Assembly: GCA_002452735.1 (NCBI GenBank)
Contig: DKFD01000011.1
Location: 1-64,000, forward strand
Length of the DNA stretch: 64,000 nucleotides
Source: Patescibacteria group bacterium UBA6805
Lineage (GTDB): Bacteria; Patescibacteriota; Minisyncoccia; Minisyncoccales; Minisyncoccaceae
Direction: 5' to 3'
This document shows positions 14,839 through 49,146 of this stretch, in pieces (position 1 is the first letter of the stretch; each line of letters begins with the position of its first letter). A model generated the notes under the pieces. It ran no database searches. It saw only the letters and a list, made by a program, of their open reading frames with translations, and was not told the DNA's origin. The translations under genes and the position numbers were made by a program.

Positions 14839-16725
14839 ATGAAAAACAAAACAAAAAAAACCCCCTCCTCTCCCATCGGGATAGCGTCCACGGTAATCGT
14901 TTTTTCCTTATTGGCCGGACTGGTTTTGTTTTTGTATTTCATTAAAGATCTGCCCCGGCCGGAAATTTTTACCGAAAGCGAAATAAGCCAGGTCACCAAA
15001 ATTTACGACCGAAAGGGTGAAATCGTTTTATCCAGTGTTTATGGAGAAGAAAAGAGGACTTATGTCCCCCTGTCCGATATTCCCGACCACCTGAAAAAAG
15101 CCGTAATCGCCACCGAAGACGCCAATTTTTACAATCATTGGGGGGTGGACATTGCCGGTGTTTTAAGGTCGGTCAGAAACAACTTCGTTTCCAGGGGCCT
15201 TTATCAGGGAGGATCAACCATTACCCAACAATTAATCCGCTCCACCTTTCTCACTTTGGAAAAATCAATTGAAAGAAAAGTTAAAGAACTGGTCCTTTCC
15301 GTCGAGCTGGACAGGCGATATTCAAAAGACCAAATTCTCGAGTGGTATTTCAATCAAGTTCCTTTCGGCATCAATATTTACGGAGCTCAGGAAGCTTCTT
15401 TGACTTACTTCCAAAAGCCGGTTAAAGAAGTTTCCCTGGCCGAGGCCGCCCTCATAGCCGCCATTATTCAGGCTCCCAGCTATTACTCTCCCTACGGAAG
15501 CCATCTTGATGATTTGCTGGCCAGAAAAGATTATGTCCTGGAAAGAATGGAAAAAGAAGGATTTATCTCCCAAGAAGAGAAAGGGACGGCTCAAAAAGAA
15601 GAATTAAAATTCAACAAGCTTCCCAAGACCCAGGCCGTTCATTTTGTTGAATTTGTAAAAAAACAACTGGAGGACATTTACGGCTCTGACTTTCTGGAGA
15701 TAAAAGGACTTAAAATATATACAACCCTTGACTGGGAATTACAACAGTTCGCGGAAACGACCCTGAAAGAACAGGTTAACATGAATAGGATTAATTTTAA
15801 CGCCTACAATTCCGCCCTCGTAGCCATTGACCCCAAAACCGGAGAAATATTGGCCATGATTGGTTCAGCAGACCCTTGGGCAGATTCGCTGCCCAAAGGA
15901 TGCGACCCGACGACGAATTGCAAATTCGTCCCGAGCTATAACGTGGCCGTCCAGGGAGAAAGGATGCCCGGTTCTTCTTTTAAGCCTTTTGTTTACGCTG
16001 AAGCATTCAGAAAAGGGTATGACGATTTGACCATAGTGGTTGACGAAATGACAAACTTCGGCACGCCCCAAGACCCGTACATTCCCCGTAATTATGACGG
16101 CCTCTTCCGCGGACCGGTGACCCTGAGAAGCGCTTTGGCCCAATCCTTGAATATCCCTTCGGTAAAAGTTTTAAGGGACCTGGCTGGCCCGGGAGACAGC
16201 ATCGCCTTGGCCAAAAAAATGGGCATCACCACCATAGACAGAGGATTAAGCTTTTACGGACTGTCATTGGTTTTAGGCGGCGGGAACGTTAAATTGCTGG
16301 ACATGGTCTCCGCCTACGGGGTTTTTGCCAACGGCGGCTACACAATAGAGCCGTCGCCGATTTTAAGAATAGAAGACAGCCGGGGAAACATAATTTACCA
16401 GAACAAAAAAACTCCGAGAAAGGTCCTGGAAAAAAATGTTTGCGATTTGATAACGGACATTCTTTCCGACAACGCCGCCCGGGCTCCGATTTTCGGATGG
16501 AATTCCAACCTAAGATTCGACAACCCTAAAGTAGCGGCAAAAACAGGAACCACCAACGACAATATCGACGGCTGGACAATAGGGTATACTTCTGACGTCT
16601 GCGTCGGGGTCTGGAGTGGAAACAACAACAATGCGCCCATGACCGGAGCAGTGGGCGAATCATCGGCCGGACCCATTTGGAGAAAAGTAATGGAAAAAAC
16701 TATTGAAATATATTCAAACAACTAA
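14839..16725 (+). CDS. mrcA: bifunctional class A penicillin-binding protein (transglycosylase/transpeptidase)
   Basis: 628 aa; N-terminal membrane anchor, GT51 motifs 'EDANFYNHWGVD' and 'GGSTITQQL', transpeptidase 'SSFKPF' (SxxK) and 'KTGTT'. Confidence 0.85.
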   Translation: MKNKTKKTPSSPIGIASTVIVFSLLAGLVLFLYFIKDLPRPEIFTESEISQVTKIYDRKGEIVLSSVYGEEKRTYVPLSDIPDHLKKAVIATEDANFYNHWGVDIAGVLRSVRNNFVSRGLYQGGSTITQQLIRSTFLTLEKSIERKVKELVLSVELDRRYSKDQILEWYFNQVPFGINIYGAQEASLTYFQKPVKEVSLAEAALIAAIIQAPSYYSPYGSHLDDLLARKDYVLERMEKEGFISQEEKGTAQKEELKFNKLPKTQAVHFVEFVKKQLEDIYGSDFLEIKGLKIYTTLDWELQQFAETTLKEQVNMNRINFNAYNSALVAIDPKTGEILAMIGSADPWADSLPKGCDPTTNCKFVPSYNVAVQGERMPGSSFKPFVYAEAFRKGYDDLTIVVDEMTNFGTPQDPYIPRNYDGLFRGPVTLRSALAQSLNIPSVKVLRDLAGPGDSIALAKKMGITTIDRGLSFYGLSLVLGGGNVKLLDMVSAYGVFANGGYTIEPSPILRIEDSRGNIIYQNKKTPRKVLEKNVCDLITDILSDNAARAPIFGWNSNLRFDNPKVAAKTGTTNDNIDGWTIGYTSDVCVGVWSGNNNNAPMTGAVGESSAGPIWRKVMEKTIEIYSNN

Positions 16726-17861
16726 AGCTTGATGGGCATTACCACGTATAAATAACTGGCGTCCCCTATCGGCCTTATCGCCGCCGGTCCGTCGTCGCCC
16801 TGGAATTCAAATAAGATTTCCGAGCTCTTAATGGTGGTCAGCCCGTCAATCAGGAATTTCCAGTTAAAAGACACCTTAAGAGAACTTCCTTCTATTTTGG
16901 CGGGAATATTCAAATTGGCCTCTCCGACGTCCGCATCTTGGCTGAAAATCTCCACCTCTTTTTCTTTGGCCGCTATCTTCAAAACCACCTCATTGGTTCT
17001 GCCGCCGAAGATACCGGCTGTTTTTATTTGCCTCAAAAATTCTTCCTTATTCACCGTAATCTTGGTTTTGCCTTCTCTGGGAATAATTTCCTGATAAGAA
17101 GGGTACTCGCCTTCAATTTGCCTGGAAATCAAATTTATTTCCGGATGATTGACTGTTGACAGAAAGGTTTCAAATAAAACTTGGGATTCGGAAAAATAAA
17201 TTCTCAGGGTTTTTTCTTCGTCGCTGACTATATTAATCAACTCCTTGGCCGCTCTCTGGGGAAGAATGAAACTGACCCTCTCTTTGAACATGTTTTTGTA
17301 TCCCTGTTTATTGGAAAAAGTTATCACCTTCTCTGACAACCTGAAGCTGTCCGTGGCCACCAGCCTGACTAGGTCTTTTTCAAACAAGAAATACACGCCC
17401 GATATTTCCGGTTTTATTTGGGACAAGCTAACCATGTCAACCACACTCATCAACCCGTCTTTTATTTTCCTTGCATCAATCTCGATGAAAACGTCTTTGG
17501 AAAAAGAGGGAATAATGGGAAACTCATCGGCGGTAAACCCCTTAATTTGGGTTTTGTAATTTTTCCCCTCCAGCACCAGGGTATTTCCCTTTTCTTTGAT
17601 ATTAACCTTTTCGTCGGACAAAGACCCTGTTATCTGACCCAAAAGCTTGGCTGGTATCGTAATTTTACCTTCTTTCTCGGTCTTGCACATTCCCCACCAC
17701 TGAACACCCAACTCAAGGTCGGTGGCCGATATTTTCAAAAAATTGGACAGAGCCTCTATTAAAACATTGTCCAGAATCGGCAGGGTTAAATTTTTACCCG
17801 TCACTCTTTCCGTGATACTTACCCCTTTTTTTAGTTCTTTGGTTAAAATTGTAAGGTTCAT
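16722..17861 (-). CDS. dnaN: DNA polymerase III beta subunit (sliding clamp)
   Basis: 379 aa; three-domain clamp layout, position directly downstream of dnaA. Confidence 0.9.
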   Translation of the reverse strand: MNLTILTKELKKGVSITERVTGKNLTLPILDNVLIEALSNFLKISATDLELGVQWWGMCKTEKEGKITIPAKLLGQITGSLSDEKVNIKEKGNTLVLEGKNYKTQIKGFTADEFPIIPSFSKDVFIEIDARKIKDGLMSVVDMVSLSQIKPEISGVYFLFEKDLVRLVATDSFRLSEKVITFSNKQGYKNMFKERVSFILPQRAAKELINIVSDEEKTLRIYFSESQVLFETFLSTVNHPEINLISRQIEGEYPSYQEIIPREGKTKITVNKEEFLRQIKTAGIFGGRTNEVVLKIAAKEKEVEIFSQDADVGEANLNIPAKIEGSSLKVSFNWKFLIDGLTTIKSSEILFEFQGDDGPAAIRPIGDASYLYVVMPIKL

Positions 17862-18083
17862 ATTATTATTAATTTATATTTTTATTTAAAACTTATTTAT
17901 TATTGATTTTGGTCTTTGGGTGGACAAATTCTTTTTCCCCAGTTTTTAAAATGAATTTTTGCATGATTTCCTCTGGAATAATTGTGGAGAAAAAGAGGGG
18001 TTTTTATGAAATAATTTTTGGTATTTTTTTCCGACAAATTTATTCGATGTTTTCCCCCCTTTGTTTCCCCGGCTTATTAACAA
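17862..18083. other. candidate oriC part 1: AT-rich unwinding element (17862-17915) plus DnaA-box-like sites (GGGTGGACAAA, TTGTGGAGAAA) in the dnaA-dnaN spacer
   Basis: seen in sequence; a bipartite origin around dnaA is the classical arrangement. Confidence 0.45.
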
Positions 18084-19445
18084 TTAATTACTATATACTC
18101 TTTGTAAAATCAGTTCTATTTCTTGGTGTGTTTTTTCGTCTTCTTCCGCCGTTTTTTCAATTAATTGGCAGGCGTGGATGACCGTGGTGTGGTCTTTTCC
18201 TCCGAATTTTCTCCCTATCTCGGAATAAGAAAGCTTCAATTCTTTTTTAAGGAGAAACATGGCAACTTGCCGGGGCCGGGAAAATTCCTTTTTTCTGGAA
18301 ACGAAAAACATGTTTCCGTTGGGGATGTCGTAAAACTCGGTGACGGACTGGATTATCTTCTTGGAATTGGTTATTTTTGAAGGAGAAACAATAATGGTTT
18401 TTAACAGCTTTTTCGCATCTTCCAGGCTCGGGCTTTTATTGTTGGCCTTTTTGAAGATTATTAAGCGGTTCAGGGCGCTTTCCAGTTCCCTGATGTTTCT
18501 TTGGATGTTGTTGGCCATAAAATCAAGAATGTCTTTCGGCAAATCAACGTTTTTCTCCTCAGCTTTTTGTTTTAAAATAGCCGCTCTTGTCTCAAAATCC
18601 GGAGAAGAAATATCGGCGATCATTCCTCCTTTAAACCGCGACTTCAGCCTTTCGGTGATGGCCGGAATAGTGCTGGGGTGCCTATCCGAAGACAAGATAA
18701 TTTGTTTGTTCTTTTGATATAAAGAATTAAAGGTGTGGAAGAATTCTTCCTGGGTTTTGTCTTTGCCAGCGATGAATTGGATGTCGTCTACGATTAAAAC
18801 GTCCAACTCCCTTAAATTTTTTTTTAATTCCTCGACGTTGTGGTTCTTAATTGAATTTATGATAATGGAAATCATTTTTTCGGCCGGAAGATATTTTACT
18901 CTTTTTTCGGGAGCATCTTCCTTTATCTTGTTGCCGACGGCCTGGACCAAATGGGTTTTGCCCAGTCCCACTCCCCCGTAAACGAATAAGGGGTTGTAAT
19001 TTTTGCCCGGCTCTTCCACCACGGCCATGGCCGCGGCGAAAGCCATTTCGTTAAAGGGCCCGACAATGAAGTTTTCAAAAACATAACGGGGGTTTAGGTT
19101 GGTTTCTTTGTTGACTTCCAATTCTTTAAAGCCCAACTGTTCGGTCAAAACATCCTCCTTGTTGACAGACTTCTTGCCGCCCATCGTCTTTTTCGTTTTC
19201 TTGGGGTCAACGACGAAGGAGATATTTTTAATGTTCTCGTCGGTGGAATGGAGTATTTTTAAAATGTCTTTTCCGTATTTTTGTTCCAGCCATTCCTTGG
19301 AAAAAGAATTGGAAACAGAGACAATAACGGTATCGTTTTCCAGAGACAATATTTTGGTGTTGGCAAACCAGGTGGCGAAATTAGCCGGAGAGATGTTTAG
19401 TTGTATTTGGGCCAGCACGGACTGCCAAAGGTTTTCTAAATCCAT
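18084..19445 (-). CDS. dnaA: chromosomal replication initiator DnaA
   Basis: 453 aa; AAA+ Walker A 'GGVGLGKTHL', C-terminal DNA-binding domain 'SYSEIGRKFGGKDHTTVIHA'. Confidence 0.95.
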   Translation of the reverse strand: MDLENLWQSVLAQIQLNISPANFATWFANTKILSLENDTVIVSVSNSFSKEWLEQKYGKDILKILHSTDENIKNISFVVDPKKTKKTMGGKKSVNKEDVLTEQLGFKELEVNKETNLNPRYVFENFIVGPFNEMAFAAAMAVVEEPGKNYNPLFVYGGVGLGKTHLVQAVGNKIKEDAPEKRVKYLPAEKMISIIINSIKNHNVEELKKNLRELDVLIVDDIQFIAGKDKTQEEFFHTFNSLYQKNKQIILSSDRHPSTIPAITERLKSRFKGGMIADISSPDFETRAAILKQKAEEKNVDLPKDILDFMANNIQRNIRELESALNRLIIFKKANNKSPSLEDAKKLLKTIIVSPSKITNSKKIIQSVTEFYDIPNGNMFFVSRKKEFSRPRQVAMFLLKKELKLSYSEIGRKFGGKDHTTVIHACQLIEKTAEEDEKTHQEIELILQRVYSN

Positions 19446-19639
19446 AATCGTATTTTTATTAATGCCTATTCATTATATTAGATAAAGTCAAGAAAGGCAA
19501 AGGTCCTTGAATAATAAGGGATTTTTCAGAGAGTGTGGAAAAAGGGTGGACAAAACGTTAATAAGGCGGAAATGTTTGTTTTGTTGACCATAAGGATTTT
19601 TTCTGTTATATTTAAAGCATTAAATTAAAGTTTTAAATT
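19446..19639. other. candidate oriC part 2 / divergent promoter region with DnaA-box-like TGTGGAAAA and a second GGGTGGACAAA copy
   Basis: motif GGGTGGACAAA occurs at about 17918 and about 19545, on either side of dnaA. Confidence 0.4.
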
Positions 19640-19777
19640 ATGAGAGTTACAACGTACAGGCCGAAAAAGAAGAAAAGAAAAAGAACGCACGGTTTTATTA
19701 AGCGTTCAAAGACTGTAAGCGGAAAGAAGGTTTTAAAAAGGAGAAGAGCCAAGAAAAGAGCAAAGCTTACGGTTTAA
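19640..19777 (+). CDS. rpmH: 50S ribosomal protein L34
   Basis: 45-aa ORF not in the ORF track: [45 protein letters not shown]; canonical rpmH-rnpA order. Confidence 0.85.
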
Positions 19778-19783: not shown

Positions 19784-20122
19784 ATGCTGCCTAAAAAAAA
19801 CAGGCTGAGAAAAAAAAAGGATTTTGAAAGGGTTTTCAAAGAAGGAAAAAATGCCAGAGGGACTGTTCTTTATTTTAAAATCTTGGAAACCAAAGAGCCG
19901 TCGTCAAGGATAGGATTTATCGTCAGCAAGAAAATTTCCCCGAAGGCCACGGAAAGGAACAAAATAAGAAGAAGAATGAAAGAGTCTGTCAGGGCGGCGC
20001 TGGACATGTTAAAAAACAGCTGGGATATAATCATTATCGCTTCGCCGCAGATTAAAAAAAGCAGTTTTGAGGAAATCAGGCGAGATACAGAAAAAACTTT
20101 TAAAAATATAAACAATGTTTGA
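19784..20122 (+). CDS. rnpA: ribonuclease P protein component
   Basis: 112 aa, basic; 'RLRKKKDF', 'IGFIVSKKISPKATERNKIRRRMKE'. Confidence 0.85.
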   Translation: MLPKKNRLRKKKDFERVFKEGKNARGTVLYFKILETKEPSSRIGFIVSKKISPKATERNKIRRRMKESVRAALDMLKNSWDIIIIASPQIKKSSFEEIRRDTEKTFKNINNV

Positions 20123-20831
20123 GTTTTTTTCAACAACCTTCAATATTGTGCTTTATCGGCCCATACTGAATCTTTTAATTTGGCTTTACGGCGCCATCGG
20201 AAATTTCGGCTGGGCCATAATCGTTCTGACGTTGATCGTCAAGATTCTTTTGAATCCCTTAAACAAAAGGGCCCTGGAATCGCAAAAGACGATGATGAAA
20301 ATACAGCCCAAGATAAAAGAAATACAAAGCAAATTCAAAGACAAAGAGCAGCAGGGCAGGGAAATGTTGAAACTTTACCAGGAAACAAAGTTTAATCCGT
20401 TCTCCGGGATATTTCTTCTTTTTCTTCAGTTGCCCGTTCTTTGGGCGCTTTTCAGGGTTTTTCAAAGCGGGCTGGATTTTGAAAAGACAAACGGGATGCT
20501 TTATTCTTTTATTTCCCTGCCCCAGGCGATAAACCCATATTTTTTAACGATTAATCTGGCCGAGCCGAGCATTTTTTTGGCCGCGATTACAGCCGTTGCC
20601 CAGTACATACAGGTAAAAACAGCAGCGCCTCCCCGGGAGGAAGCCAAGGAAAAAAGCAAAGACCAGGCGGAGAGGATTTCCCAAATGGTTCAGAAGCAGA
20701 CGATGCTTTTTATTCCGGCTTTTACCTTTTTCGTTCTTTTTAATCTGCCGGCAGCCATTGCTCTTTATTGGTCGCTGACCACGGTTTTAAATATTATTCA
20801 GCAAAAGAAAATATTTGAAAAACATGAATGA
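20115..20831 (+). CDS. yidC: membrane protein insertase YidC (short form)
   Basis: 238 aa; 'GWAIIVLTLIVKILLNPL', multi-TM, position after rnpA. Confidence 0.85.
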   Translation: MFEFFSTTFNIVLYRPILNLLIWLYGAIGNFGWAIIVLTLIVKILLNPLNKRALESQKTMMKIQPKIKEIQSKFKDKEQQGREMLKLYQETKFNPFSGIFLLFLQLPVLWALFRVFQSGLDFEKTNGMLYSFISLPQAINPYFLTINLAEPSIFLAAITAVAQYIQVKTAAPPREEAKEKSKDQAERISQMVQKQTMLFIPAFTFFVLFNLPAAIALYWSLTTVLNIIQQKKIFEKHE

Positions 20832-21297
20832 AAAAGAATTATCAGAATCCATAGAGGAGATAGTCAAGGATTTTTTCCGCCGAGCCGGTTCAGAGGCGGA
20901 GATTAAAAAGATATCTCTGGAAGAATCGGACGGCCGGGAAGTTTTAATGTTGAATTTGAAAACCAAAGAAGCCAACATTTTCATCGGCAAACAAGGACTG
21001 GTTTTGTCCGACATCCAACTTCTTTTGCGAAAGATGATAAAGAAAAAAACAGACAAGGATTTTTTCTTGAATCTGGACATAGATGATTACAAAAGATATA
21101 AAGAAGATTATTTGAGAGAAATGGCTCAGGGCGCCGCTGATGAAGCAATCGGCCAAAAAGAAAAAAAAGAGCTGCCCTTGGCTTCTGCTTTTGACAGGAG
21201 GATAGTGCACCTGGAGCTTTCAAAAAGAAAAGACGTTAAAGTGGAAAGCGAGGGAGAGGGAGAGGAAAGAAAAATAATAATTACGCCTTTGGACTAA
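20815..21297 (+). CDS. Jag/KhpB-like RNA-binding protein (KH + R3H)
   Basis: 160 aa; C-terminal R3H-like 'FDRRIVHLEL'; canonical position after yidC. Confidence 0.65.
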   Translation: MKNMNEKELSESIEEIVKDFFRRAGSEAEIKKISLEESDGREVLMLNLKTKEANIFIGKQGLVLSDIQLLLRKMIKKKTDKDFFLNLDIDDYKRYKEDYLREMAQGAADEAIGQKEKKELPLASAFDRRIVHLELSKRKDVKVESEGEGEERKIIITPLD

Positions 21298-23075
21298 ACA
21301 ACTTCCTGGTTGTATTGCTTGGCTTCCCTTATTTTAATTACCTCTTCCGGAGAAGTGGTGATTATTTGGTCTTCAGTGTACGAGGCGACTACGCTGATGG
21401 CTACGTGTTTCTGGCCGGCGAAGAAAATGCCCTCGCCCACCGGGCTTTCCAGAAGAAGGTATTTTTCCTGGTCGGTTAAATTGAAAGTTTTCTGGACCAG
21501 GTCTATGGCTGCCGGGCTTTGCTTTAGAAGAAGCTGAAGAGAGGAGTTGGTGATAATGGGCTTGCCGTATTCGGAGCCGATAAAATCGGAAACGTCCTGG
21601 GTGATGGTGGTTACCCCCAGCCAGTACTTTCTTGCTCTTTTGCAGATGCCATACAAGAAAGATGCTCCGTCCGCTTCTTTCATCATCCACCATGCTTCGT
21701 CAACAACAAGAATTCTTTTCTTCATGCTGACCCTGATGGCGTTCCAGATGTAGCGCATAACAATAAACATGGCAATGGGTCTTAGCTCGTCTTCCATGTC
21801 TCTTATCCCGAAAACAGCCAGGGATTTGTTCATGGAAATATTGGATTGGTTGTTGAAGAAGGCCGAGAAAGTTCCCTTGGTGAACTTTCTCAGTCTTTCC
21901 ACCAGAGACTCTGCTCCCTGCATCGTGTCCAGAACAGATTCCAGGTCGGAAAGGGTGGGAATGTTTTCTTTCCATTTTTTGGGGTCGGAATACGGAGTAA
22001 TGTCTTTGGCGGCGTAGGTTTCCATAATCGCTCGGTCCATAATGGCGTCTTCTTCCGGCGTCAGTCCCCCGAGCATTATTCTGGTTAAGCCGACCAAGTT
22101 GATAATGTTGCTTCTCAATACGTCTTCCGGGGTTTCGTCTTCCCTCGGTTCCGGCAAGTCAAAAGGATTGATGTGGTTATCGGAGCTCAGGGATATTTTA
22201 AAAAAAGAACCATCCACGGCATCGGCCAGGGGCTTGTACTCGTTTTCCGGGTCGATGATTATACATTCGGCTCCCAACATCAAAGACCTTAATATTTCCA
22301 GCTTTACGGCATAGGATTTGCCCGAGCCGGATTTGGCGAAGATGACCATATTGGCGTTTTCCAAGCTGAAGCGGTCGAATAAAATCAGGGAGCTGTTGTG
22401 CTTGTTGACACCGAAGAGAATGCCTTCGTTGGAGCTTAAATCAAAAGAGATGAAAGGAAACAAGCTGGACAGGGGGCCGGTATTCAGTGTGCTATGGACT
22501 TGTAACAAATCCATTCCGTAGGGGAAGCAGGACAATAAGCCCTCTTTTTGCTGGAGCAGGGCTGGTTTTATATATATCAGTCTTGATTCCAGCATTGACC
22601 TTAAGGACGTTTCCACGGTCTCCAAATCTTTTTTATTGTCAGCGTAAATGGTGATATACAGTCCGAATTTGAACATTTTTTCCTGGGCGGTCTGGAGCTT
22701 GTCTCTTAAATCTTCGAGGTCCTGATAAGCGGTTTCCAAGGACGGGTCCCTGATCAGCCCCTTTTCCTGCCTTTCGATTATTTCCGACTGCACCTCGGTT
22801 ACGCTTTTTCTTAATTGCCTTAAAATGGTCCCGGTTTCAATGGGGTGGAAGAAGAAAGACAAATCAAAGGGTACGTCCATATTAATGATAGGAGACAGCC
22901 ATCCCATTGTCAGATAACGGGGATAAGAAAAAACAAAATAGGTTTTGGAGAATTTTTCTTCAATCCTTACGTAGTTCTGATCAACCTCAATGGCAGGCGA
23001 AGCAATAATGTCTTTGGCGCCGGTGACTTCTTTTTCAAAAAGTTTGCCGGGCTTTGGTTTGTTGAATAATGCCAT
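21294..23075 (-). CDS. VirB4/TrbE-family type IV secretion ATPase, C-terminal ATPase portion
   Basis: ORF 21294-23153; Walker A 'FAKSGSGKSYAVK', Walker B 'ILVVDEAWWMM'; probable start at internal Met 'MALFNKPKPGKL' (23075). Confidence 0.75.
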   Translation of the reverse strand: MALFNKPKPGKLFEKEVTGAKDIIASPAIEVDQNYVRIEEKFSKTYFVFSYPRYLTMGWLSPIINMDVPFDLSFFFHPIETGTILRQLRKSVTEVQSEIIERQEKGLIRDPSLETAYQDLEDLRDKLQTAQEKMFKFGLYITIYADNKKDLETVETSLRSMLESRLIYIKPALLQQKEGLLSCFPYGMDLLQVHSTLNTGPLSSLFPFISFDLSSNEGILFGVNKHNSSLILFDRFSLENANMVIFAKSGSGKSYAVKLEILRSLMLGAECIIIDPENEYKPLADAVDGSFFKISLSSDNHINPFDLPEPREDETPEDVLRSNIINLVGLTRIMLGGLTPEEDAIMDRAIMETYAAKDITPYSDPKKWKENIPTLSDLESVLDTMQGAESLVERLRKFTKGTFSAFFNNQSNISMNKSLAVFGIRDMEDELRPIAMFIVMRYIWNAIRVSMKKRILVVDEAWWMMKEADGASFLYGICKRARKYWLGVTTITQDVSDFIGSEYGKPIITNSSLQLLLKQSPAAIDLVQKTFNLTDQEKYLLLESPVGEGIFFAGQKHVAISVVASYTEDQIITTSPEEVIKIREAKQYNQEVV

Positions 23076-23080
23076 ATTGT

Positions 23081-23722
23081 TTATGTTATAATTTCCGGCG
23101 GCAGTTCGGGATAATATCCCAATTCGGCCTGCTTCGGATGGTGCAAGCTCCACAAAAGCTCAATTAATTCTTCCGTCCCCAGGGGCACTGATTTCAAGCC
23201 GCATCTTCTCAGTCCCAAAGAAATATATTCCATTCTTTGCCAGAGCTGGTATTTTCCGGTCTGGAAGCCCTGCTCGGTCAGAGTGGAGCGGGTGGTTTGT
23301 TTCTTTCCCTCTCCCCCACTGGTCAGGCTCGGGAGCTCAACCAAAGGATAGTAAGGGACGACGATATAGAAATTTTTATTCATGATTGACCCGCCGGCCA
23401 CCAACTCTTCAACGAACCGTCTGTAATCAGAGGTTTGGATTTTCAAGAGTTCGTTTTTTTGCTCGTCTTCCAGTTTTTTGATTTTTTCCACATAGCCGGT
23501 GATGTTCACTTTCCTTGAGCTCACGATTATCTGGCAGGAGAAGTCTAAAGAATTCAAGAAGTTTTGAAAATTGAAAATGATGGCGCCCTGCTCTTCTTCC
23601 GATTTCAAGGCGAAATTAATTGAGGAAATAAGAAGAATCCCTTTTAATGATTTGTCTTTCATGATCATCACTCCTTCGCGGATTTGCTCAACCGGTATAA
23701 ATTGTTGGGAAGATATGGCCAT
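23081..23722 (-). CDS. VirB4-family N-terminal domain as a separate ORF (split gene, frameshift or genuinely bipartite)
   Basis: 213 aa; 'GILLISSINFALKSEEEQ' region resembles the N-terminus of Gram-positive-type VirB4 proteins; ends 5 nt before the ATPase ORF in a different frame; the combined length of about 806 aa is normal for VirB4. Confidence 0.55.
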   Translation of the reverse strand: MAISSQQFIPVEQIREGVMIMKDKSLKGILLISSINFALKSEEEQGAIIFNFQNFLNSLDFSCQIIVSSRKVNITGYVEKIKKLEDEQKNELLKIQTSDYRRFVEELVAGGSIMNKNFYIVVPYYPLVELPSLTSGGEGKKQTTRSTLTEQGFQTGKYQLWQRMEYISLGLRRCGLKSVPLGTEELIELLWSLHHPKQAELGYYPELPPEIIT

Positions 23723-37344: not shown

Positions 37345-37710
37345 CTAAGGGGCGATTTTTTTGTTGCATTCGTTGCAGGTTCTGGCTTCGGGAAAGATTT
37401 TTAACCTGTCCAGGAGTATTTCTTTATCGCAATTTTCGCACATGCCGTAAGTTCCCTTCTCCATTTTTTCCAAAGCCAAACCAATGTCTTTTAATTTCGT
37501 TTCTAGGGCGTATTCCACGGGCAGGAGATTTTCATATTCCTCCACCTCGTCGGCCTCTTCTTCCAGGCCTTCCCCGGGATTATTGGGGTAGCGTGTCTGC
37601 CAGTCGTTATCAGTGCTTTTCTGGGCGAACCTTTCCAGCTCTTTTTCTGTCTCTTTTTTACTTAACTCCAATTGATTTTTTAGTTTATCTAAGATATTTT
37701 TTTCCATCAT
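37345..37710 (-). CDS. DksA/TraR-family C4 zinc-finger protein
   Basis: 121 aa; coiled-coil N-terminus, 'CENCDKEI...CNECN' zinc finger. Confidence 0.65.
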   Translation of the reverse strand: MMEKNILDKLKNQLELSKKETEKELERFAQKSTDNDWQTRYPNNPGEGLEEEADEVEEYENLLPVEYALETKLKDIGLALEKMEKGTYGMCENCDKEILLDRLKIFPEARTCNECNKKIAP

Positions 37711-37784
37711 ATTATTAAAATCTGCAGATAATAATATAGCCGATTATTGTCAAAATCCCCAAAACGATTATTCTTATTGTTAGC

Positions 37785-39176
37785 TTAGAGATCAAGCTGG
37801 GTTTTTGGTTCATTGTTTTGCTCCGTTTTTATTTCTAATTTGTCCAAGTCGATGTTTGTCGCCTCTTCTTCCAGTTTGTCGATTTTTAAATCTATTTTAA
37901 AAATCTCATTTTTAATGTTTTTGGCCCTTGAAGATACCAGTTGATATTTTTCTCTGAATTCGGCTCTTTGTTTTTCTACTTTATTCAGGGCGTCTTCGGC
38001 CTCCCACCTTTCTTCCTCGGTTGCCCTTCTTTTGTTTTCCGCCTGTCTTCTTTCTTCTTCTATTTTTCTGATTTCCGTCGGATTTTCAATAACAACACTT
38101 CCTCTTTTTTCCGTAATTTTTATTTCTTCCTCGACGGATTTTTCCTTAAGCATTATGTCGGTGAGCTTTTTTTCCAGCCGGTCTTTTTCTTTGGTGTTTT
38201 CTATCATTTTTTCCTTAATTTCAAATCCCTCCTTGCCGATATTTTCCAGTTCGACAAACAGCCCTTGCCTTTTTTCTTTTAAAAGGATTTTTTCCCTGTC
38301 CCCTCTCAGCATTTCCAGTTCCAGGTTAAGTTGTTTTTCTTTGGACAGAACTTTTTCAAAGGTTAGAACGCATTCTTTGAGCTGCGATCTCAGCGATTTG
38401 ATTTCATCTTCTTTTTTGTTTCCCTCTGCTTCAATTACGTTTCTTTCGTCTTCAATCTTCCATCTTTCTTTTTCCATTTTCCTTTTTTCTTCGGGGTCCC
38501 TGGAAGAAGATTCTTTCATCTCTATGCTTTTTTTGATTTCCTCTATCCTCTTTTTTCTTTCAGTAATGAGTTCAAGTTTTTTCTTGGACCTTTCTACCTC
38601 TCTTTCAATCTCCTGCTTTCTTTCTTCAAAAGGCATTTTTTCTTCCAGAACCTTTCTTAGATTTTCTTCTATTTCAAAAGTAAGGTCTGTAATTTTTCTC
38701 AGCTTTTCTTCGGCATTTTCCTCAACCTCTCTTTCTTTGATGTTCTCCATGGAAATTTCTTCTTCGGGTCCTTCTTTTGCCTGGGGCGCTTCTTCGGCCG
38801 GCTCTTCTTTGACAACAAGAGGCTCTGGTTCTGTGACGGGCTCTTTTTCAACAACAGGCTCTTTTTCCATGACGGGAATTTCCGGAGGAGCAGGCAGAGG
38901 AATCTCTTCTTTTTCCTCCGGAGTCCCTATTTTTTCATTTTGCAACGCCAATTCTTCCGAAGAAAAGTATCCTTCAGTTTCTTTGGGAGGGGCGGGAGGA
39001 AGGATTTCTTCTGTGGACTCTATTTCGGCGGTTTCATATTCTCCTTCAATAAGGGTTTCGTCTAAAAATTTTTCCTGGGCCTCCTCTGTTTCTCCTTGTT
39101 CTGCTTTGGCTAAATCTTTCTTCATGGTTCGTATCTTGTCGCGATTTAGCCTGAAAACATTTTTTTCCTCAACCAT
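37785..39176 (-). CDS. hypothetical Glu/Lys-rich coiled-coil protein
   Basis: 463 aa; low complexity, heptad-like E/K repeats, Pro/Glu-rich central linker. Confidence 0.4.
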   Translation of the reverse strand: MVEEKNVFRLNRDKIRTMKKDLAKAEQGETEEAQEKFLDETLIEGEYETAEIESTEEILPPAPPKETEGYFSSEELALQNEKIGTPEEKEEIPLPAPPEIPVMEKEPVVEKEPVTEPEPLVVKEEPAEEAPQAKEGPEEEISMENIKEREVEENAEEKLRKITDLTFEIEENLRKVLEEKMPFEERKQEIEREVERSKKKLELITERKKRIEEIKKSIEMKESSSRDPEEKRKMEKERWKIEDERNVIEAEGNKKEDEIKSLRSQLKECVLTFEKVLSKEKQLNLELEMLRGDREKILLKEKRQGLFVELENIGKEGFEIKEKMIENTKEKDRLEKKLTDIMLKEKSVEEEIKITEKRGSVVIENPTEIRKIEEERRQAENKRRATEEERWEAEDALNKVEKQRAEFREKYQLVSSRAKNIKNEIFKIDLKIDKLEEEATNIDLDKLEIKTEQNNEPKTQLDL

Positions 39177-39185
39177 ATTGTGTGT

Positions 39186-41288
39186 TTATTTTCTTGCTTC
39201 TTTTAATGATAGATTAATTCTGCCCTGTTCGTCAATAGAGACGACTTTCACGGGAACAATATCCCCAATTTTCACCACGTCGCTTACCTTGTTTACCCTT
39301 TTTTCCGATAATTGAGAAATATGAACCAGGCCTTCCTGCCCCGGAAGCATTTCCACAAAGGCCCCGAAGTCAAGGATTCTTTTGACCTTGCCTTGGAAGG
39401 TTTCTCCCACCACGACTTCTCTGGTGATGTTGTTAATCCATTCCAGGGCTTTTTGGGCCGATTCTTCTTTTTCCGCGGTTACGAATATTTCGCCCGTTTC
39501 TTCAATGTCAATGGAAACGTTGCAAGCGTCGATTATTTCATTGATAATTTTTCCTCCCGGGCCGATGACCTCGCCGATTTTCTCGGGATTGATTTTGATA
39601 ATGAATATTCTCGGCGCATAAGAAGACAGTTGTTTCCTCGGTTCAGGGAGAACCGCCCTCATTTTTTCCAGGATTTCCAGTCTGGCTTTTTTTGATTGTT
39701 CCAGCGCCTCTTTTATTATCTTCCCCGTAATACCCCTGACCTTTACGTCCATTTGCAGGGCATTGATTCCGTCTTTTGTCCCGGCCACCTTTAAATCCAT
39801 GTCTCCGTAGTGGTCTTCCTGTCCCTGGACATCGGTAAGAATCTTGTATTTTTTTTCTTCCGTGTTTTTGTTTTTGTCCATTTCCATCATCATTCCCATG
39901 GCAATACCCGAAACAGGATTTTTAATGGGAACTCCTCCGTCCATCATGGCCAGACAAGCAGCGCAAGTTGAGGCCATCGAACTTGAACCATTTGAACACA
40001 AAACTTCGGAAACCAGCCTAATGGTATAGGGAAAGATTTGAGCATCGGGGATAACCTGCCTTAAGGCCTTTTCTGCCAGCATGCCGTGTCCGATTTCTCT
40101 TCTTCCCGGACCCCTCAGAGCGCCGATTTCTCCGACGCAGGAAGGAGGAAAGTTATAGTGGTGCATGAATCTTTTTTTCCCCTCGACTTCCATTTCTTCC
40201 ATTATTTTTTGCTCTCCCGGAGAACCCAAAGTCAGAAAAGAAAGAACCTTGGTTTGGCCTCGGCAGAATAATCCCGAGCCGTGGACTCTTTCAAAAAGTC
40301 CGGCCCGGCAGTTAATTTCCCTGATTTCGTTGAGGCCCCGGCCGTCAATTCTTAAATTGCGGTCAATGACCATCTGATGTATTGTTTTTTCTCCTTCTTG
40401 CTCCAAAAGATGAAGGCCGTGGCTTACCTTCTCCGCTTCCTCATATTTGTTTCTTAAGTGTTCTTTTAATTCTTCTCGGAAAGAATCAAAGTCTATGAGG
40501 GATTTTTCCATCTTCCCTTCGGCGAATTCTTTTATTTCCTTTTCCAGCTCCTCGTCCTCTTTTTTTTCTCCAAGTAATATTTTTTCTTTTCCCATTTTTT
40601 GGGCGATTTCTTCCCCGAAAATCAGCAGCTTTTCCTGAAGAGGCCTGGTTTTTTCAATGGCCTTGTTGATTTCTTCTTCTTGGGCTCCGTCAAATTCTCC
40701 CTCAATCATATTGACCAAAATTTCTTTTTTTGATTCTGAATAAAGAGCCGAAAAGAACAAATCAAAGCTTCCTGCCTCCCGTTCCTCTTTGGCGGGGAAG
40801 GCCACAAGTTCTCCGTTCTTTTTTCCCATTCTTAAGGGGGCAACCGGTCCGTTCCAGGGTATATCCGAGACGAGAAGAGCCAGAGAAGAGGCAAAAAGGC
40901 CTAAAACCGCCGGGTCATTTTCTTTGTCCCAGGAAATACAGGTGGCGATGATTTGAACTTCCCGCTTGAAATTATCCGGGAAAAGAGGCCTGATTGCCCT
41001 GTCAATCAGCCTGGAATTAAGAATGGCTTTTTCACTCGGCCTCGACTCTCTTTTTAAAAATCTTGAGCCCAGGATTTTGCCCACGGCGTAATATTTTTCC
41101 TCGTAAGTCACGGTTAAAGGAAAAAAATCGCTTCCCTCGATTTCTTTCTTGGCCATTACGGCCGTTGCCATTATTATCGTGTTGCCGAGCTTTATCCAAA
41201 CCGAACCATTGGCCCTTTCGGCCAGATCGTTTATCTCCACCTCCAAAGTTTTGCCGTCAACGTCTAATTTAAAGATTTCGGATTTCAT
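39186..41288 (-). CDS. pnp: polyribonucleotide nucleotidyltransferase (PNPase)
   Basis: 700 aa; two RNase PH domains, KH and C-terminal S1 domain 'GETFQGKVKRILDFGAFVEM'. Confidence 0.95.
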   Translation of the reverse strand: MKSEIFKLDVDGKTLEVEINDLAERANGSVWIKLGNTIIMATAVMAKKEIEGSDFFPLTVTYEEKYYAVGKILGSRFLKRESRPSEKAILNSRLIDRAIRPLFPDNFKREVQIIATCISWDKENDPAVLGLFASSLALLVSDIPWNGPVAPLRMGKKNGELVAFPAKEEREAGSFDLFFSALYSESKKEILVNMIEGEFDGAQEEEINKAIEKTRPLQEKLLIFGEEIAQKMGKEKILLGEKKEDEELEKEIKEFAEGKMEKSLIDFDSFREELKEHLRNKYEEAEKVSHGLHLLEQEGEKTIHQMVIDRNLRIDGRGLNEIREINCRAGLFERVHGSGLFCRGQTKVLSFLTLGSPGEQKIMEEMEVEGKKRFMHHYNFPPSCVGEIGALRGPGRREIGHGMLAEKALRQVIPDAQIFPYTIRLVSEVLCSNGSSSMASTCAACLAMMDGGVPIKNPVSGIAMGMMMEMDKNKNTEEKKYKILTDVQGQEDHYGDMDLKVAGTKDGINALQMDVKVRGITGKIIKEALEQSKKARLEILEKMRAVLPEPRKQLSSYAPRIFIIKINPEKIGEVIGPGGKIINEIIDACNVSIDIEETGEIFVTAEKEESAQKALEWINNITREVVVGETFQGKVKRILDFGAFVEMLPGQEGLVHISQLSEKRVNKVSDVVKIGDIVPVKVVSIDEQGRINLSLKEARK

Positions 41289-41551
41289 GATTTGAGTCCG
41301 ATTTTTTTAACCAGCTCTTTGTATTTTTTTTCGTTGGTTTTTTCCAAATACTTTAAAAGTTTTCTTCTTTTGGCCACCATTTTAAGCAGGCCTTTTTTGG
41401 AATGAAGGTCCTTTTTGTGCTTTTGCAAATGATTGAGAAGTTTTTCTATTTCTTCCGACAAAAGAGCGATCTGGACTTCGGCCGAGCCAGTGTCTTTTTC
41501 GTGCAATTTGAACTTGTTGATGACTTTTTCCTTTTCCGTTGTTGAAATCAT
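41285..41551 (-). CDS. rpsO: 30S ribosomal protein S15
   Basis: 88 aa; 'HEKDTGSAEVQIALLSEEI...LQKHKKDLHSKKGLL'. Confidence 0.9.
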   Translation of the reverse strand: MISTTEKEKVINKFKLHEKDTGSAEVQIALLSEEIEKLLNHLQKHKKDLHSKKGLLKMVAKRRKLLKYLEKTNEKKYKELVKKIGLKS

Positions 41552-41577
41552 ATTTTTATTATTTATCTTTTTCTTGT

Positions 41578-41650
41578 GCCCCGTGAAGGACTCGAACCTA
41601 CAACCTTGAAGTTAAGAGCTTCCTGCTCTGCCAATTGAGCTAACGGGGCT
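41578..41650 (-). tRNA. tRNA-Lys (anticodon CTT)
   Basis: manual fold: acceptor GCCCCGT/ACGGGGC, D-arm GCTC..GAGC, anticodon loop CTCTTAA, T-loop TTCGAGT; one G-A at 27-43 and one T-T in the T-stem; no encoded CCA. Confidence 0.65.
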
Positions 41651-42042
41651 TAAGGATTTTTCTGGAAGAAGTAAAGGGGCCATTCCATCTGTCCCTTGGT
41701 TATGAAAGTTACGAATTCGTAAACGATAATCCAGGCGGAATAAATCAACAATATGCCGACGACGCCGTAAGTCAATATTTTTCTTCCCTGCTCCACTTTG
41801 CCCGGGTCGCCGCCGGCCGTCATGATGGTAATTCCGCCCCAGGCGAAGAAAAGAACGGCTAAAGGAGGAACCAGGTTGAAAAGGATGAAATTAACAACAT
41901 TGTTGATTAAAACAAAAAAGTCGCTAAAGGTGCAAGAATTCTGTCCTTCTCCGCCGCAGGGAACGAGTCCTTGTCCCAGAACCGGCGTGGCGAAAAACAA
42001 AAAAAGAGCGAAGAAAAGCAGATATTGTTTGATTTTTGACAT
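41650..42042 (-). CDS. short stand-alone VirB2/TrbC-like (T4SS-type) pilin
   Basis: 130 aa; signal peptide, then '...LAVLFFAWGGITIMTAGGDPGKVEQGRKILTYGVVGILLIYSAWII', the same two-helix plus basic-loop architecture as the N-termini of the three fusion proteins; its stop codon touches the tRNA-Lys 5' end. Confidence 0.55.
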   Translation of the reverse strand: MSKIKQYLLFFALFLFFATPVLGQGLVPCGGEGQNSCTFSDFFVLINNVVNFILFNLVPPLAVLFFAWGGITIMTAGGDPGKVEQGRKILTYGVVGILLIYSAWIIVYEFVTFITKGQMEWPLYFFQKNP

Positions 42043-42084
42043 AAGCTTTTTTGAGTATAGCGGTTTTAAGTAAAAAAATCAAGG

Positions 42085-42156
42085 TGCCCCCGGCAAGATT
42101 CGAACTCGCACCACTGGTTCCGAAGACCAGTACTCTATCCATTGAGCTACGGGGGC
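42085..42156 (-). tRNA. tRNA-Arg (anticodon TCG)
   Basis: manual fold: acceptor GCCCCCG/CGGGGGC, anticodon stem CTGGT/ACCAG with loop CTTCGGA, T-loop TTCGAAT; CC but no full CCA encoded. Confidence 0.7.
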
Positions 42157-42158
42157 AT

Positions 42159-43500: not shown

Positions 43501-43518
43501 ATATTTTTATTTTTAAAA

Positions 43519-44388: not shown

Positions 44389-44403
44389 ATATAAAAATTA
44401 TTA

Positions 44404-45264: not shown

Positions 45265-45268
45265 TTTT

Positions 45269-47056: not shown

Positions 47057-47096
47057 AAAGAAAAAAGAAATACGGGATATTTCTTTAATAACGTGT

Positions 47097-47747: not shown

Positions 47748-47782
47748 AATTTTATGCGTTATTCTTACGGATTCATTCTACC

Positions 47783-48343: not shown

Positions 48344-48347
48344 TGTT

Positions 48348-48947: not shown

Positions 48948-48971
48948 GTTTTTATGATTATTCTTATACTG

Positions 48972-49042
48972 TGGGCTTGATGAGAGTCGAACTCATATTG
49001 CTACTGTGTGAAAGTAGTATTCTGCCGCTGAATTACAAGCCC
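48972..49042 (-). tRNA. tRNA-Val (anticodon CAC)
   Basis: manual fold: acceptor GGGCTTG/CAAGCCC, D-stem ATTC/GAAT, anticodon stem CTACT/AGTAG with loop TTCACAC, T-stem ATGAG/CTCAT; no CCA. Confidence 0.7.
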
Positions 49043-49047
49043 AGGGT

Positions 49048-49061
49048 GTTTCACGTGAAAC
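49048..49061. promoter_or_regulatory. 14-bp perfect palindrome GTTTCACGTGAAAC 5 nt upstream of the tRNA-Val 5' end (copy 1)
   Basis: identical element with identical flanks (CCCAGG..TGTTTCACGTGAAACTTT) precedes tRNA-Ala at 49302-49315. Confidence 0.4.
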
Positions 49062-49146
49062 TTTTGTCGGGATGCTGGGAATTGAACCCAGATGACAGAC
49101 TCCCGAAGCCTGCATAATGCCGTTATATTACATCCCGAAATTATTT

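Follow-up and report, generated by a model that had tools for sequence, protein, structure and literature searches.

A predicted chromosomal replication origin, laid out as in Bacillus subtilis, beside dnaA in a Minisyncoccales bacterium

The dnaA locus of this uncultured bacterium of the Minisyncoccales (Paceibacterota, candidate phyla radiation) raises the question of whether chromosome replication starts there and, if so, which sequence the initiator protein would recognize. We analyzed a 64,000-nucleotide stretch of a metagenome-assembled genome (hereafter, the window), the sequence of which is the same as that of GCA_002421465.1. No strain-level variation was detected among contigs encoding identical DnaA, which are 100% identical across the region. 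All five genes of the locus (dnaN, dnaA, rpmH, rnpA and yidC) were identified by NCBIfam equivalog matches. A preliminary description had placed dnaA between two non-coding regions, with coordinates that proved correct to within one or two bases; these regions are the 222-bp and 194-bp spacers below.

16722-17861, minus strand: dnaN, sliding clamp (NCBIfam TIGR00663, E = 6.6e-71)
17862-18083: dnaA-dnaN spacer, non-coding, 222 bp
18084-19445, minus strand: dnaA, initiator (NCBIfam TIGR00362, E = 5e-153)
19446-19639: rpmH-dnaA spacer, non-coding, 194 bp
19640-19777, plus strand: rpmH, ribosomal protein L34 (TIGR01030, E = 4.5e-14), divergent from dnaA
19784-20122, plus strand: rnpA (NCBIfam equivalog match)
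20115-20831, plus strand: yidC (NCBIfam equivalog match)

The gene order rnpA-rpmH / dnaA-dnaN is shared by most of 80 related loci, and the region thus lies beside dnaA in a conserved neighborhood. The dnaA-dnaN spacer measures just 20-30 nt in L041-L046, which are more distant relatives. Rfam and tRNA scans gave no match in the region. The region is in all likelihood the chromosomal replication origin of this bacterium, in the ancestral rnpA-rpmH / dnaA-dnaN context, and it is an ordinary origin of known type, laid out as in Bacillus subtilis. This level of confidence applies jointly to a model in which the working origin is in the dnaA-dnaN spacer, the array upstream of dnaA is mostly autoregulatory, and a repeated 11-mer is an ordinary DnaA-box variant. 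The suggestion of an oriC neighborhood made in the preliminary description is supported by boxes in both spacers flanking dnaA, an A/T-rich unwinding candidate and a switch in strand composition.

The 11-mer, GGGTGGACAAA, had been reported from both spacers. It occurs exactly twice in the 64-kb window (17918-17928 and 19544-19554, both on the plus strand), once per spacer and with no further exact copy, where base composition predicts 0.023 exact copies per window over both strands. The sole copy with one mismatch is at 28160. On the dnaA strand the 11-mer reads T-TTGTCCACC-C, and its core, TTGTCCACC, is two mismatches from the DnaA box TTATCCACA. As previously described, the window lacks a perfect TTATCCACA, although TTTTCCACA and TTCTCCACA are each one mismatch away. 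The additional box-like sites that had been noted in the spacers are also present: TGTGGAAAA at 19534-19542, which reads TTTTCCACA on the other strand, and TGTGGAGAA at 17983-17991. The dnaA-dnaN spacer contains the following features.

17862-17915: A/T-rich tract, candidate DNA unwinding element (54 bp, 90.7% A+T), abutting the dnaN start codon
17892-17906, minus strand: remnant of a period-3 (TAR)n DnaA-trio-like array, only ATA ATA (17898-17903) in phase
17919-17927, minus strand: predicted box nearest the A/T tract, TTGTCCACC, core of the 11-mer, pointing to the tract (11.2 bits)
17933-17941, plus strand: inverted box-like site TTTTCCCCA, 5 bp from the box at 17919-17927 (13.1 bits)
17983-17991, minus strand: predicted middle DnaA box TTCTCCACA (TGTGGAGAA on the plus strand), one mismatch (14.6 bits)
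18050-18082, plus strand: opposed array at the dnaA-proximal end of the spacer, with TTTTCCCCC (18050-18058), GTTTCCCCG (18063-18071) and TTATTAACA (18074-18082)

The box at 17919-17927 aligns with TTATCCACA, TTATCCACC, TTGTCCACA or TTGTCCCCA in 11 relatives, and T160, T161, T163, C164, C165 and C167 are invariant in the same alignment. The middle box has the same orientation, and its orthologue in close relatives is TTTTCCACA, TTTTCCCCA or TTATCCACA. The inverted site at 17933-17941 lacks conservation in relatives, and thus may be species-specific or a chance occurrence. Within the opposed array, GTTTCCCCG and TTATTAACA are in 11-bp register; the counterpart in relatives is TGTGGAAAA or TGTGGATAA directly after the dnaA stop, then GAGGAAA and GGAAAAA. 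TTATTAACA, a two-mismatch box, lacks the CC core; even so, it may regularly fill a slot of the 11-bp-phased DnaA arrays that flank dnaA on either side. The two spacers also share TTATTAAC as a 13-nt inverted repeat. This sequence was considered as the site of a separate protein and rejected as such: it fills a slot of the 9+2-phased box arrays, where relatives have either it or TTATCAACA, and a low-affinity DnaA site would be the simpler reading.

Scanning the 416 bp of spacer with a weight matrix made from relatives only, we identified 6 sites scoring 9 bits or more, versus 0.57 in dinucleotide shuffles (0/1000 reach 6). The density of box-like sites is 14.4 per kb in the spacers and 0.64 per kb across the remainder of the window, a difference of about 20-fold, so the boxes cluster above chance level. 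In relatives the two spacers have 5.2 and 8.0 boxes per kb versus 0.35 per kb elsewhere, a 15-23-fold enrichment. Sequences within one mismatch of TTATCCACA show no overall excess across the whole window (11 versus 13.8 expected), and thus the signal is one of clustering rather than total count.

The start of the dnaA-dnaN spacer had been described as about 50 nt of nearly pure A/T, which holds for the tract at 17862-17915. By nearest-neighbor energy it ranks first in the window for instability among 54-bp duplexes. It ends 3 nt from the box at 17919-17927, and relatives conserve both its composition and its position. A/T richness of this level recurs at only one further place in the window (54139-54224), which was rejected as an alternative unwinding element: it is without boxes, comes after a hairpin and precedes a 1469-aa ORF.

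The tract also carries a trio-like repeat, as ATA ATA at 17898-17903 reads 3'-TAT TAT-5' on the plus strand. We checked box and trio orientation against published 3'-to-5' listings of the basal unwinding system (BUS) of B. subtilis, E. coli and M. pneumoniae. The box TTGTCCACC is within two mismatches of the consensus, with the unwinding element 3' of 5'-TTATCCACA-3'. The window nevertheless falls short of the published BUS rule, having two consecutive NAN trios (TAT TAT, spacer 15) where at least three consecutive 3'-NAN-5' trios are required, starting no more than 16 bp from the box and lying on the strand opposite that of the box. Nor is there a tandem second box, the 12-nt spacer being A-rich and without a box-like 9-mer; the published survey accepts single-box modules and gives a peak box-to-trio spacer of 10-13 bp. 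TAATAGTAATAA can be read as perfect 3'-(G/A)AT-5' on the box strand, but this reading was discarded, as the published geometry calls for the other strand.

Relatives have a phased period-3 array at a fixed 12-nt distance from the box (modal spacer 12). When the loci are anchored on the box, T occurs at +14, +17, +20, +23 and +26 in 86, 91, 80, 80 and 60% of loci, respectively; the window retains T at +17 and +20 only. Runs of at least five trios were found in 36% of loci versus 4% of shuffles (55 anchored relatives), and 73% of these relatives satisfy the BUS rule of at least three trios, versus 38% of shuffles. The trios in relatives are mostly pyrimidine-first, where G is preferred in B. subtilis. 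A CTAATAGTAATAATA-type trio-like array is carried by L007.

The encoded DnaA is full length and aligns end to end with B. subtilis DnaA (8BTG, E = 1.5e-108). Trio-capture residues E183, I190, I193, K222 and E228 (B. subtilis numbering) are kept, and N187S, N196H, R202K and E223D differ; three of the differences (N187S, N196H and R202K) are at base-contacting residues. The paper that describes the trio-capturing residues states that they are not universally conserved. We raise, tentatively and with some doubt, the idea that Minisyncoccales origins use a variant unwinding module in which an A-rich spacer of fixed length (12 nt) separates a single box from a (TAR)n repeat, matched by the base-capture-pocket substitutions N187S, N196H and R202K relative to B. 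subtilis. On the canonical strand, such a module would have pyrimidine-first 3'-YAT-5' trios after an initial GAT or AAT. The array would here have decayed to two units, so that opening would rest mainly on the 54-bp A/T tract.

The preliminary description had also proposed that the 11-mer is itself a lineage-specific DnaA box. If so, GGGTGGACAAA would replace TTATCCACA as the recognition sequence, as with the Thermotoga 12-mer, and DnaA would prefer TTTGTCCACCC over TTATCCACA. The two exact copies, one in each spacer where 0.023 are expected, are in keeping with this proposal, as is the lack of a perfect TTATCCACA in the window. It is contradicted by the relatives: the exact 11-mer is present in only 2 of 80 related loci and so is not a conserved origin repeat of the lineage. 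One of the two is L001, a 94%-identical relative, and in the other, L073, the 11-mer is at a chance position. The sites orthologous to the 11-mer cores are mostly canonical or near-canonical (TTATCCACA, TTATCCACC, TTGTCCACA or TTATCCCCA), the most frequent spacer 9-mer across the 80 loci is TTATCCACA, and the other boxes of the same genome are TTTTCCACA and TTCTCCACA. In an alignment of DnaA domain IV that included an E. coli reference row, neither RPRQ nor the recognition helix DHTTVIH differs between the window and relatives with canonical boxes, with no substitution of base-contacting residues in the window versus the relatives. A Pro-to-Ser change in SYSEIG is common to all of L001-L034. 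Given the canonical sites of the relatives and the unchanged recognition helix, we consider a lineage-specific box very improbable. The 11-mer appears instead to be an ordinary DnaA-box variant, TTGTCCACC with one matching base on each flank, that happens to fill one slot per spacer.

The second copy of the 11-mer is in the rpmH-dnaA spacer, where the following features were identified.

19472-19500, minus strand: dnaA promoter candidate (TTGCCT, 17-nt spacer, TATAAT; 10/12 consensus; block conserved in relatives)
19505-19520: short palindrome CCTTG-N-AAGG, just upstream of the dnaA -35 element
19534-19564, minus strand: three-site array in one orientation and 11-bp register, with TTATTAACG (19564-19556), tt, TTGTCCACC (19553-19545), ct and TTTTCCACA (19542-19534)
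19584-19612, plus strand: rpmH promoter candidate (TTGACC, 17-nt spacer, (TG)TATATT; 10/12, extended -10 TG)

The central TTGTCCACC (19553-19545) is the core of the second 11-mer. The 9+2+9+2+9 register also occurs in L001, L002, L004, L007-L012, L024 and L029, and distant relatives have TTATTAACA or TTATCAACA in one slot of the equivalent triple array. At the position of the palindrome relatives have CCTTGATTTTACAAGG, CCTTATTTCTTAAGG or CCTTGATTTTTCAAGG. The GGTCAA of the rpmH promoter candidate is conserved in relatives. Judging from this arrangement, the upstream array is probably autoregulatory or auxiliary.

Raw cumulative GC skew has minima near 18 kb and near 50 kb, the latter slightly deeper. 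Third-position skew strongly follows gene orientation and the raw skew is ambiguous; thus, we fitted a model of fourfold-site G/C skew that includes gene orientation as a covariate. In the 64-kb window the best changepoint is at 17,972, inside the dnaA-dnaN spacer (LRT 23.7 versus 13.6 for the best of 100 gene-order permutations, 0/100 reaching the observed value), and the plus strand is G-rich to the right of it, which is the polarity of an origin. The GC-skew check proposed beforehand therefore places an orientation-corrected switch at the locus within the window, though the visible replicon is 64 kb and a stronger switch may exist elsewhere. The other refuting condition set beforehand, an 11-mer as frequent elsewhere, did not arise either, with no exact copy in the window outside the two spacers. 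The 50-kb minimum was rejected as an origin, being explained by a switch in gene orientation. Gene orientation is weakly aligned with the proposed fork directions (e.g., 14 consecutive minus-strand genes at 37-51 kb). In pooled relatives the breakpoint falls between dnaA and dnaN (LRT 121 versus 55 and 66 one gene away), a result to which gene-specific codon usage could contribute, as the same orthologous genes are reused.

The alternatives differ mainly in what the two spacers are taken to do. DnaA is a known autoregulator, and the upstream array has promoters on both flanks; the boxes could thus be only transcriptional operators for dnaA, dnaN and rpmH, with replication starting elsewhere on the replicon. 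The dnaA-dnaN spacer of only 20-30 nt in L041-L046 indicates that the origin is not always in this spacer, and just 64 kb of sequence is visible. We nevertheless regard this as quite unlikely, since the skew, once corrected for gene orientation, has its switch precisely in the dnaA-dnaN spacer and with the polarity of an origin, a box adjoins the most extreme A/T tract of the window, and transcription offers no obvious reason for a trio-like array at a constant distance from the box. It is also unlikely, if slightly less so, that the A/T tract is merely a dnaN promoter and unstructured leader without a Shine-Dalgarno sequence, and not an unwinding element. Weak promoter-like matches do occur inside the tract (17927-17899 and 17890-17862, 9/12), and none of dnaN, dnaA and rpmH has a Shine-Dalgarno sequence, so that A/T-rich leaders may be needed for translation. 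The leaders of dnaA and rpmH are far less extreme in A/T, however, and the distance from the conserved box to the start of the tract, with its phased repeat, is constant. In addition, promoter and unwinding roles are compatible, as in B. subtilis incC.

A more serious competitor, though one that we do not favor, is a strictly bipartite origin of the B. subtilis or H. pylori type, in which both clusters are required and the rpmH-dnaA array loops via DnaA to help open the A/T tract. There are indeed two box clusters with dnaA between them, conserved on either side of the gene, in a gene context that matches B. subtilis. The upstream sites share orientation and 11-bp register, as expected of a scaffold for a DnaA oligomer, and some relatives (L023, L025, L026, L030 and L033) have at least five upstream boxes. 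Yet the upstream array lies within the 83 bp between two divergent -35 elements, which fits an operator, there is no A/T tract or trio array 3' of it, and 17/59 relatives lack an upstream box within one mismatch. Autoregulation accounts for the upstream sites just as well, since they stand between divergent promoters and lack a separate unwinding module. The dnaA-dnaN spacer by itself has opposed box arrays, a decayed trio-like repeat and the A/T tract as unwinding candidate, and thus looks like a self-contained origin.

With the dnaA-dnaN spacer (17862-18083) as the working origin, we infer the following course of events. DnaA would bind two boxes of the same orientation that point to dnaN (TTCTCCACA and TTGTCCACC) and the opposed, weaker sites at the dnaA end (TTATTAACA, GTTTCCCCG and TTTTCCCCC), the two sets spanning a DnaA-assembly region of about 165 bp that may be compared with the R1-R4 stretch of E. 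coli oriC. An ATP-DnaA oligomer would grow from the tract-proximal box onto the strand complementary to the box strand, meet the weak trio-like repeat (3'-TAT TAT-5' here; 3'-(G/A)AT TAT YAT TAT TAT-5', 12 nt from the box, in relatives) and open the adjacent 54-bp, 91% A/T tract, where the helicase would be loaded. The array of TTATTAACG, TTGTCCACC and TTTTCCACA between the divergent promoters would most likely serve DnaA autoregulation, and possibly also act as an auxiliary DnaA reservoir or loop partner.

This layout is closest to that of B. subtilis oriC (incA/B, dnaA, incC), which has the same rpmH, dnaA, dnaN context and boxes flanking dnaA. In both, unwinding is predicted in the dnaA-dnaN spacer, with a box, a period-3 repeat and an A/T tract in succession just before dnaN, and the strand geometry agrees with the published B. 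subtilis listing 3'-AATAGGTGT..GATGATAAT-5'. Unlike in B. subtilis, there are far fewer boxes than in incA/B, a single box rather than a tandem pair lies beside the repeat, an A-rich 12-nt spacer takes the place of the GC cluster, and the trios of relatives (3'-(G/A)AT TAT YAT TAT TAT-5') are not GAT-rich, with two units in the window. As in E. coli oriC, the proximal box is directed towards the unwinding element, with a distal box inverted about 165 bp away. The weaker sites are in 9+2 bp (11-bp) register, as in low-affinity arrays; such a register is reportedly found in the low-affinity DnaA arrays of E. coli. The published E. coli trio listing (TAG GAT TAT, 10-nt spacer) resembles the GAT TAT start in relatives. 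Unlike the E. coli origin, the locus adjoins dnaA rather than lying between gidA and mioC, and it lacks GATC clusters and 13-mer repeats. Actinobacteria (Mycobacterium and Streptomyces) have a genus-wide consensus DnaA box, TTGTCCACA. G at box position 3 is found in TTGTCCACC here and in TTGTCCACA in several relatives, although, unlike in Actinobacteria, it is one variant among canonical TTATCCACA sites. The bipartite oriC of H. pylori (oriC1, dnaA, oriC2) has its unwinding element and trio motifs downstream of dnaA (PMC8235120, PMC3479198). Here too dnaA splits two box clusters and the unwinding candidate is in the downstream sub-origin; H. pylori differs in using TCATTCACA-type boxes and supercoiling-dependent boxes.

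The result matters little for the window itself. It provides a curated anchor at 17.9 kb, of use in this group when assemblies are rotated or checked and when growth rates are estimated from coverage. With the comparative set, the box-trio-A/T unwinding layout now reaches the candidate phyla radiation; the names Saccharibacteria, Parcubacteria, Patescibacteria and candidate phyla are absent from the portions of the published BUS survey's text and supplementary files available to us. The set also draws attention to a trio variant that is pyrimidine-first and testable with purified DnaA. For this uncultured lineage of ultra-small episymbionts, the implication is that the start of replication would be standard, located beside dnaA and marked by standard DnaA boxes.

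The dnaA region has the gene order tyrS (-), a PBP1A gene (+), dnaN (-), dnaA (-), rpmH (+), rnpA, yidC, jag (+) and a VirB4-like ATPase gene (-), and NCBIfam matches were found for all genes of this neighbourhood. The genes and spacers around dnaA are:

16722-17861, minus strand: dnaN (DnaN, TIGR00663, 6.6e-71)
17862-18083: dnaA-dnaN spacer, 222 bp
18084-19445, minus strand: dnaA (DnaA, TIGR00362, 5e-153)
19446-19639: rpmH-dnaA spacer, 194 bp, rpmH being divergent from dnaA
19640-19777, plus strand: rpmH (L34, 4.5e-14)

No Shine-Dalgarno-like purine run precedes the starts of dnaN, dnaA or rpmH (17840-17861, 19446-19470, 19620-19639), where the leaders are plain A/T. The VirB4-like type IV secretion ATPase (21294-23153, minus strand; NF045971, E = 7e-108) lies 1.2 kb from rpmH-rnpA-yidC-jag. 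This location agrees with a published report that, in Paceibacteria, genes for type IV secretion cluster around dnaA, dnaN, rnpA and rpmH (PMC12102498).

A DnaA protein search identified 80 loci in Minisyncoccales / Paceibacterota genomes (54-94% DnaA identity), including Minisyncoccus archaeiphilus and Ca. Microsyncoccus archaeolyticus; most keep the order rnpA-rpmH, dnaA-dnaN. For candidate phyla radiation genomes, an origin next to dnaA is a routine assumption (PMC7111523), and the one proposed here in the preliminary description is borne out by DnaA box enrichment and by strand composition. Scanned with a weight matrix that was built from the relatives only (cut-off of at least 9 bits), the 416 bp of spacer contain 6 sites versus 0.57 in dinucleotide shuffles (0 of 1000 reach 6); such sites are about 22 times as dense there as elsewhere in the window. 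Raw GC skew gives no clear answer: because third-position G/C tracks gene orientation, it has one minimum near 18 kb and another near 50 kb. When G versus C at fourfold sites of 60 ORFs was modelled with gene orientation as a covariate, one dominant changepoint was identified within the 64 kb of replicon covered, at 17,972 in the dnaA-dnaN spacer (likelihood-ratio statistic, LRT, 23.7, versus a best of 13.6 among 100 gene-order permutations). The plus strand is G-rich rightward of this point, the polarity of an origin. Pooled flanks of the relatives again place the breakpoint between dnaA and dnaN (LRT 121, dropping to 55 or 66 when it is shifted by one gene), which is supporting rather than independent evidence because the same orthologous genes are reused. 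Fourteen consecutive minus-strand genes and five minus-strand tRNA genes (37345-50807) would be transcribed head-on to a fork from 17.9 kb; therefore, gene-strand bias appears weak in this genome.

The features previously described in the two dnaA spacers, including an A/T-rich stretch, are all present. The sites include:

17918-17928 and 19544-19554: the 11-mer GGGTGGACAAA, found nowhere else in the window (0.023 copies expected from base composition)
17983-17991: box-like TGTGGAGAA, in its other reading TTCTCCACA, one mismatch from the canonical box TTATCCACA
19534-19542: box-like TGTGGAAAA, in its other reading TTTTCCACA, one mismatch from TTATCCACA

On the dnaA strand the 11-mer reads T-TTGTCCACC-C, and its core TTGTCCACC is a DnaA box that departs from TTATCCACA at two positions. 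In relatives, the sites orthologous to both copies are TTATCCACA, TTATCCACC, TTGTCCACA or TTATCCCCA (alignment A1). Their boxes, at no more than one mismatch, number 5.2 per kb in rpmH-dnaA spacers and 8.0 per kb in dnaA-dnaN spacers versus 0.35 per kb elsewhere, and canonical TTATCCACA is the commonest 9-mer across all loci. The exact 11-mer is confined, among the 80 loci, to L001, the 94%-identical relative (at the orthologous upstream site), and L073. The recognition helix DHTTVIH and the RPRQ motif of DnaA are the same in the window and in relatives with canonical boxes. The proposal that the 11-mer is a lineage-specific recognition sequence was rejected on these grounds, and we infer that it is a local, slightly degenerate DnaA box. 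At the position that we take to be Pro423 of E. coli DnaA, loci L001-L034 have Ser throughout (SYSEIG; window dnaA, 18087-19445) and more distant relatives keep Pro (SFPAIG, SYPFIG); the change has no visible effect on box usage.

From the dnaA stop towards dnaN, the dnaA-dnaN spacer contains:

18074-18082: TGTTAATAA (TTATTAACA on the plus strand), opposed set, directly past the dnaA stop
18063-18071: GTTTCCCCG, second site of the opposed set
18050-18058: TTTTCCCCC, third site of the opposed set
17991-17983, dnaA strand: TTCTCCACA
17927-17919, dnaA strand: TTGTCCACC, the proximal box, about 55 nt past TTCTCCACA
17862-17915: A/T tract, following the proximal box on the dnaA strand and extending to the dnaN ATG

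At the position of the opposed set, relatives carry TGTGGAAAA or TGTGGATAA, then GAGGAAA and GGAAAAA. No other 54-bp stretch of the window forms so unstable a duplex as the tract (90.7% A+T), which upholds the tract's earlier designation as a candidate unwinding element. The E. coli origin has boxes R1 and R4 plus an unwinding element, a layout that the opposed outer boxes (about 165 bp apart), with the proximal box directed at the tract, would resemble. In many relatives (L006, L013-L015, L017, L019, L023, L027, L028, L033, L069) the box nearest the tract has C as its seventh base (TTATCCCCA or TAATCCCCA), which in E. coli, Caulobacter and H. pylori is a mark of low-affinity boxes specific to ATP-DnaA (PMC8235120). 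At 54139-54224 lies the one further tract of the window that reaches 90.7% A+T or more. It is upstream of a 1469-aa ORF (54191-58597, plus strand) with unusually A/T-rich fourfold sites (472 A+T versus 219 G+C), possibly the gene of a large surface protein that was acquired recently.

Anchoring 35 family members, ungapped, at the proximal box end revealed a period-3 repeat, with T at +14, +17, +20, +23 and +26 in 86, 91, 80, 80 and 60% of loci. On the box strand, relatives have a 12-nt A-rich spacer, within the published 10-13 bp peak, then (C/T)TA ATA (A/G)TA ATA ATA. In the supplement to Pelliciari et al. (2021), basal unwinding system (BUS) modules are given in the 3'-to-5' direction along the trio strand (AATAGGTGT TTAGGTGT CCGG GATGATAATGAAGATGAT for B. 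subtilis; AATAGGTGT CCCGTCACGC TAGGATTAT for E. coli). Trios thus sit on the strand complementary to 5'-TTATCCACA-3', and the relatives' array is 3'-(G/A)AT TAT (T/C)AT TAT TAT-5'. Five or more NAN trios in a row are present in 36% of loci versus 4% of shuffles. The published rule for a BUS is at least three trios within 16 bp; the window's dnaA-dnaN spacer falls short because only ATA ATA (17898-17903) is still in phase. Of the base-capture pocket of B. subtilis DnaA, the window DnaA retains E183, I190, I193, K222 and E228 and has the changes N187S, N196H and R202K; the BUS authors report that these residues lack universal conservation.

The rpmH-dnaA spacer has two 10/12 promoter matches pointing away from each other, with a box array between their -35 elements:

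19584-19612, plus strand: rpmH promoter candidate, TTGACC-17-TATATT
19564 down to 19534: upstream array TTATTAACG, tt, TTGTCCACC, ct, TTTTCCACA, one orientation, 11-bp register
19500-19472, minus strand: dnaA promoter candidate, TTGCCT-17-TATAAT

The 9+2+9+2+9 register recurs in relatives L001, L002, L004, L007-L012, L024 and L029. In distant relatives, TTATTAACA or TTATCAACA takes one slot of the equivalent triple array, so TTATTAACA is best read as a putative low-affinity DnaA box variant. Its presence in both spacers accounts for a 13-nt inverted repeat missed in the preliminary description (CCGGCTTATTAAC / GTTAATAAGGCGG, 18069-18081 and 19557-19569, 12/13 complementary), the TTATTAAC core of which is in 11-bp register with the boxes and is conserved far beyond the species.

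With clusters in both spacers, a strictly bipartite origin is possible. On the 3' side of the upstream array there is neither an A/T tract nor a phased repeat, only a short palindrome and the dnaA promoter candidate, which favours a putative autoregulatory or auxiliary role for the array. The palindrome (CCTTG..AAGG, 19505-19520) precedes the dnaA -35 element by about 5 nt and may form a hairpin or bind a regulator; its counterparts in relatives are CCTTGATTTTACAAGG, CCTTATTTCTTAAGG or CCTTGATTTTTCAAGG, and the changes look compensatory. The rpmH-dnaA spacer of Ca. Microsyncoccus archaeolyticus (L004, 3513-4000) is 488 bp versus about 190 bp in close relatives, with an insertion of roughly 300 bp separating the promoter region from the box array.

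Our literature search found no description of oriC anatomy in this phylum, and the BUS survey text and supplement files searched mention neither Saccharibacteria, Parcubacteria nor Patescibacteria, nor "candidate phyla". Loci L041-L046, with DnaA about 60% identical, have a dnaA-dnaN spacer of just 20-30 nt or so and no box in it, so the origin cannot have one organisation across the whole group. The window matches B. subtilis oriC and its BUS in gene context, in having boxes to either side of dnaA, and in the box-repeat-A/T module immediately ahead of dnaN (PMC6669920, PMC8287927, PMC10721633). Unlike B. subtilis, it has a single proximal box and no GC cluster; the relatives' trios are pyrimidine-first and the array of the window species has decayed. 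The region is an ordinary member of a known origin type.
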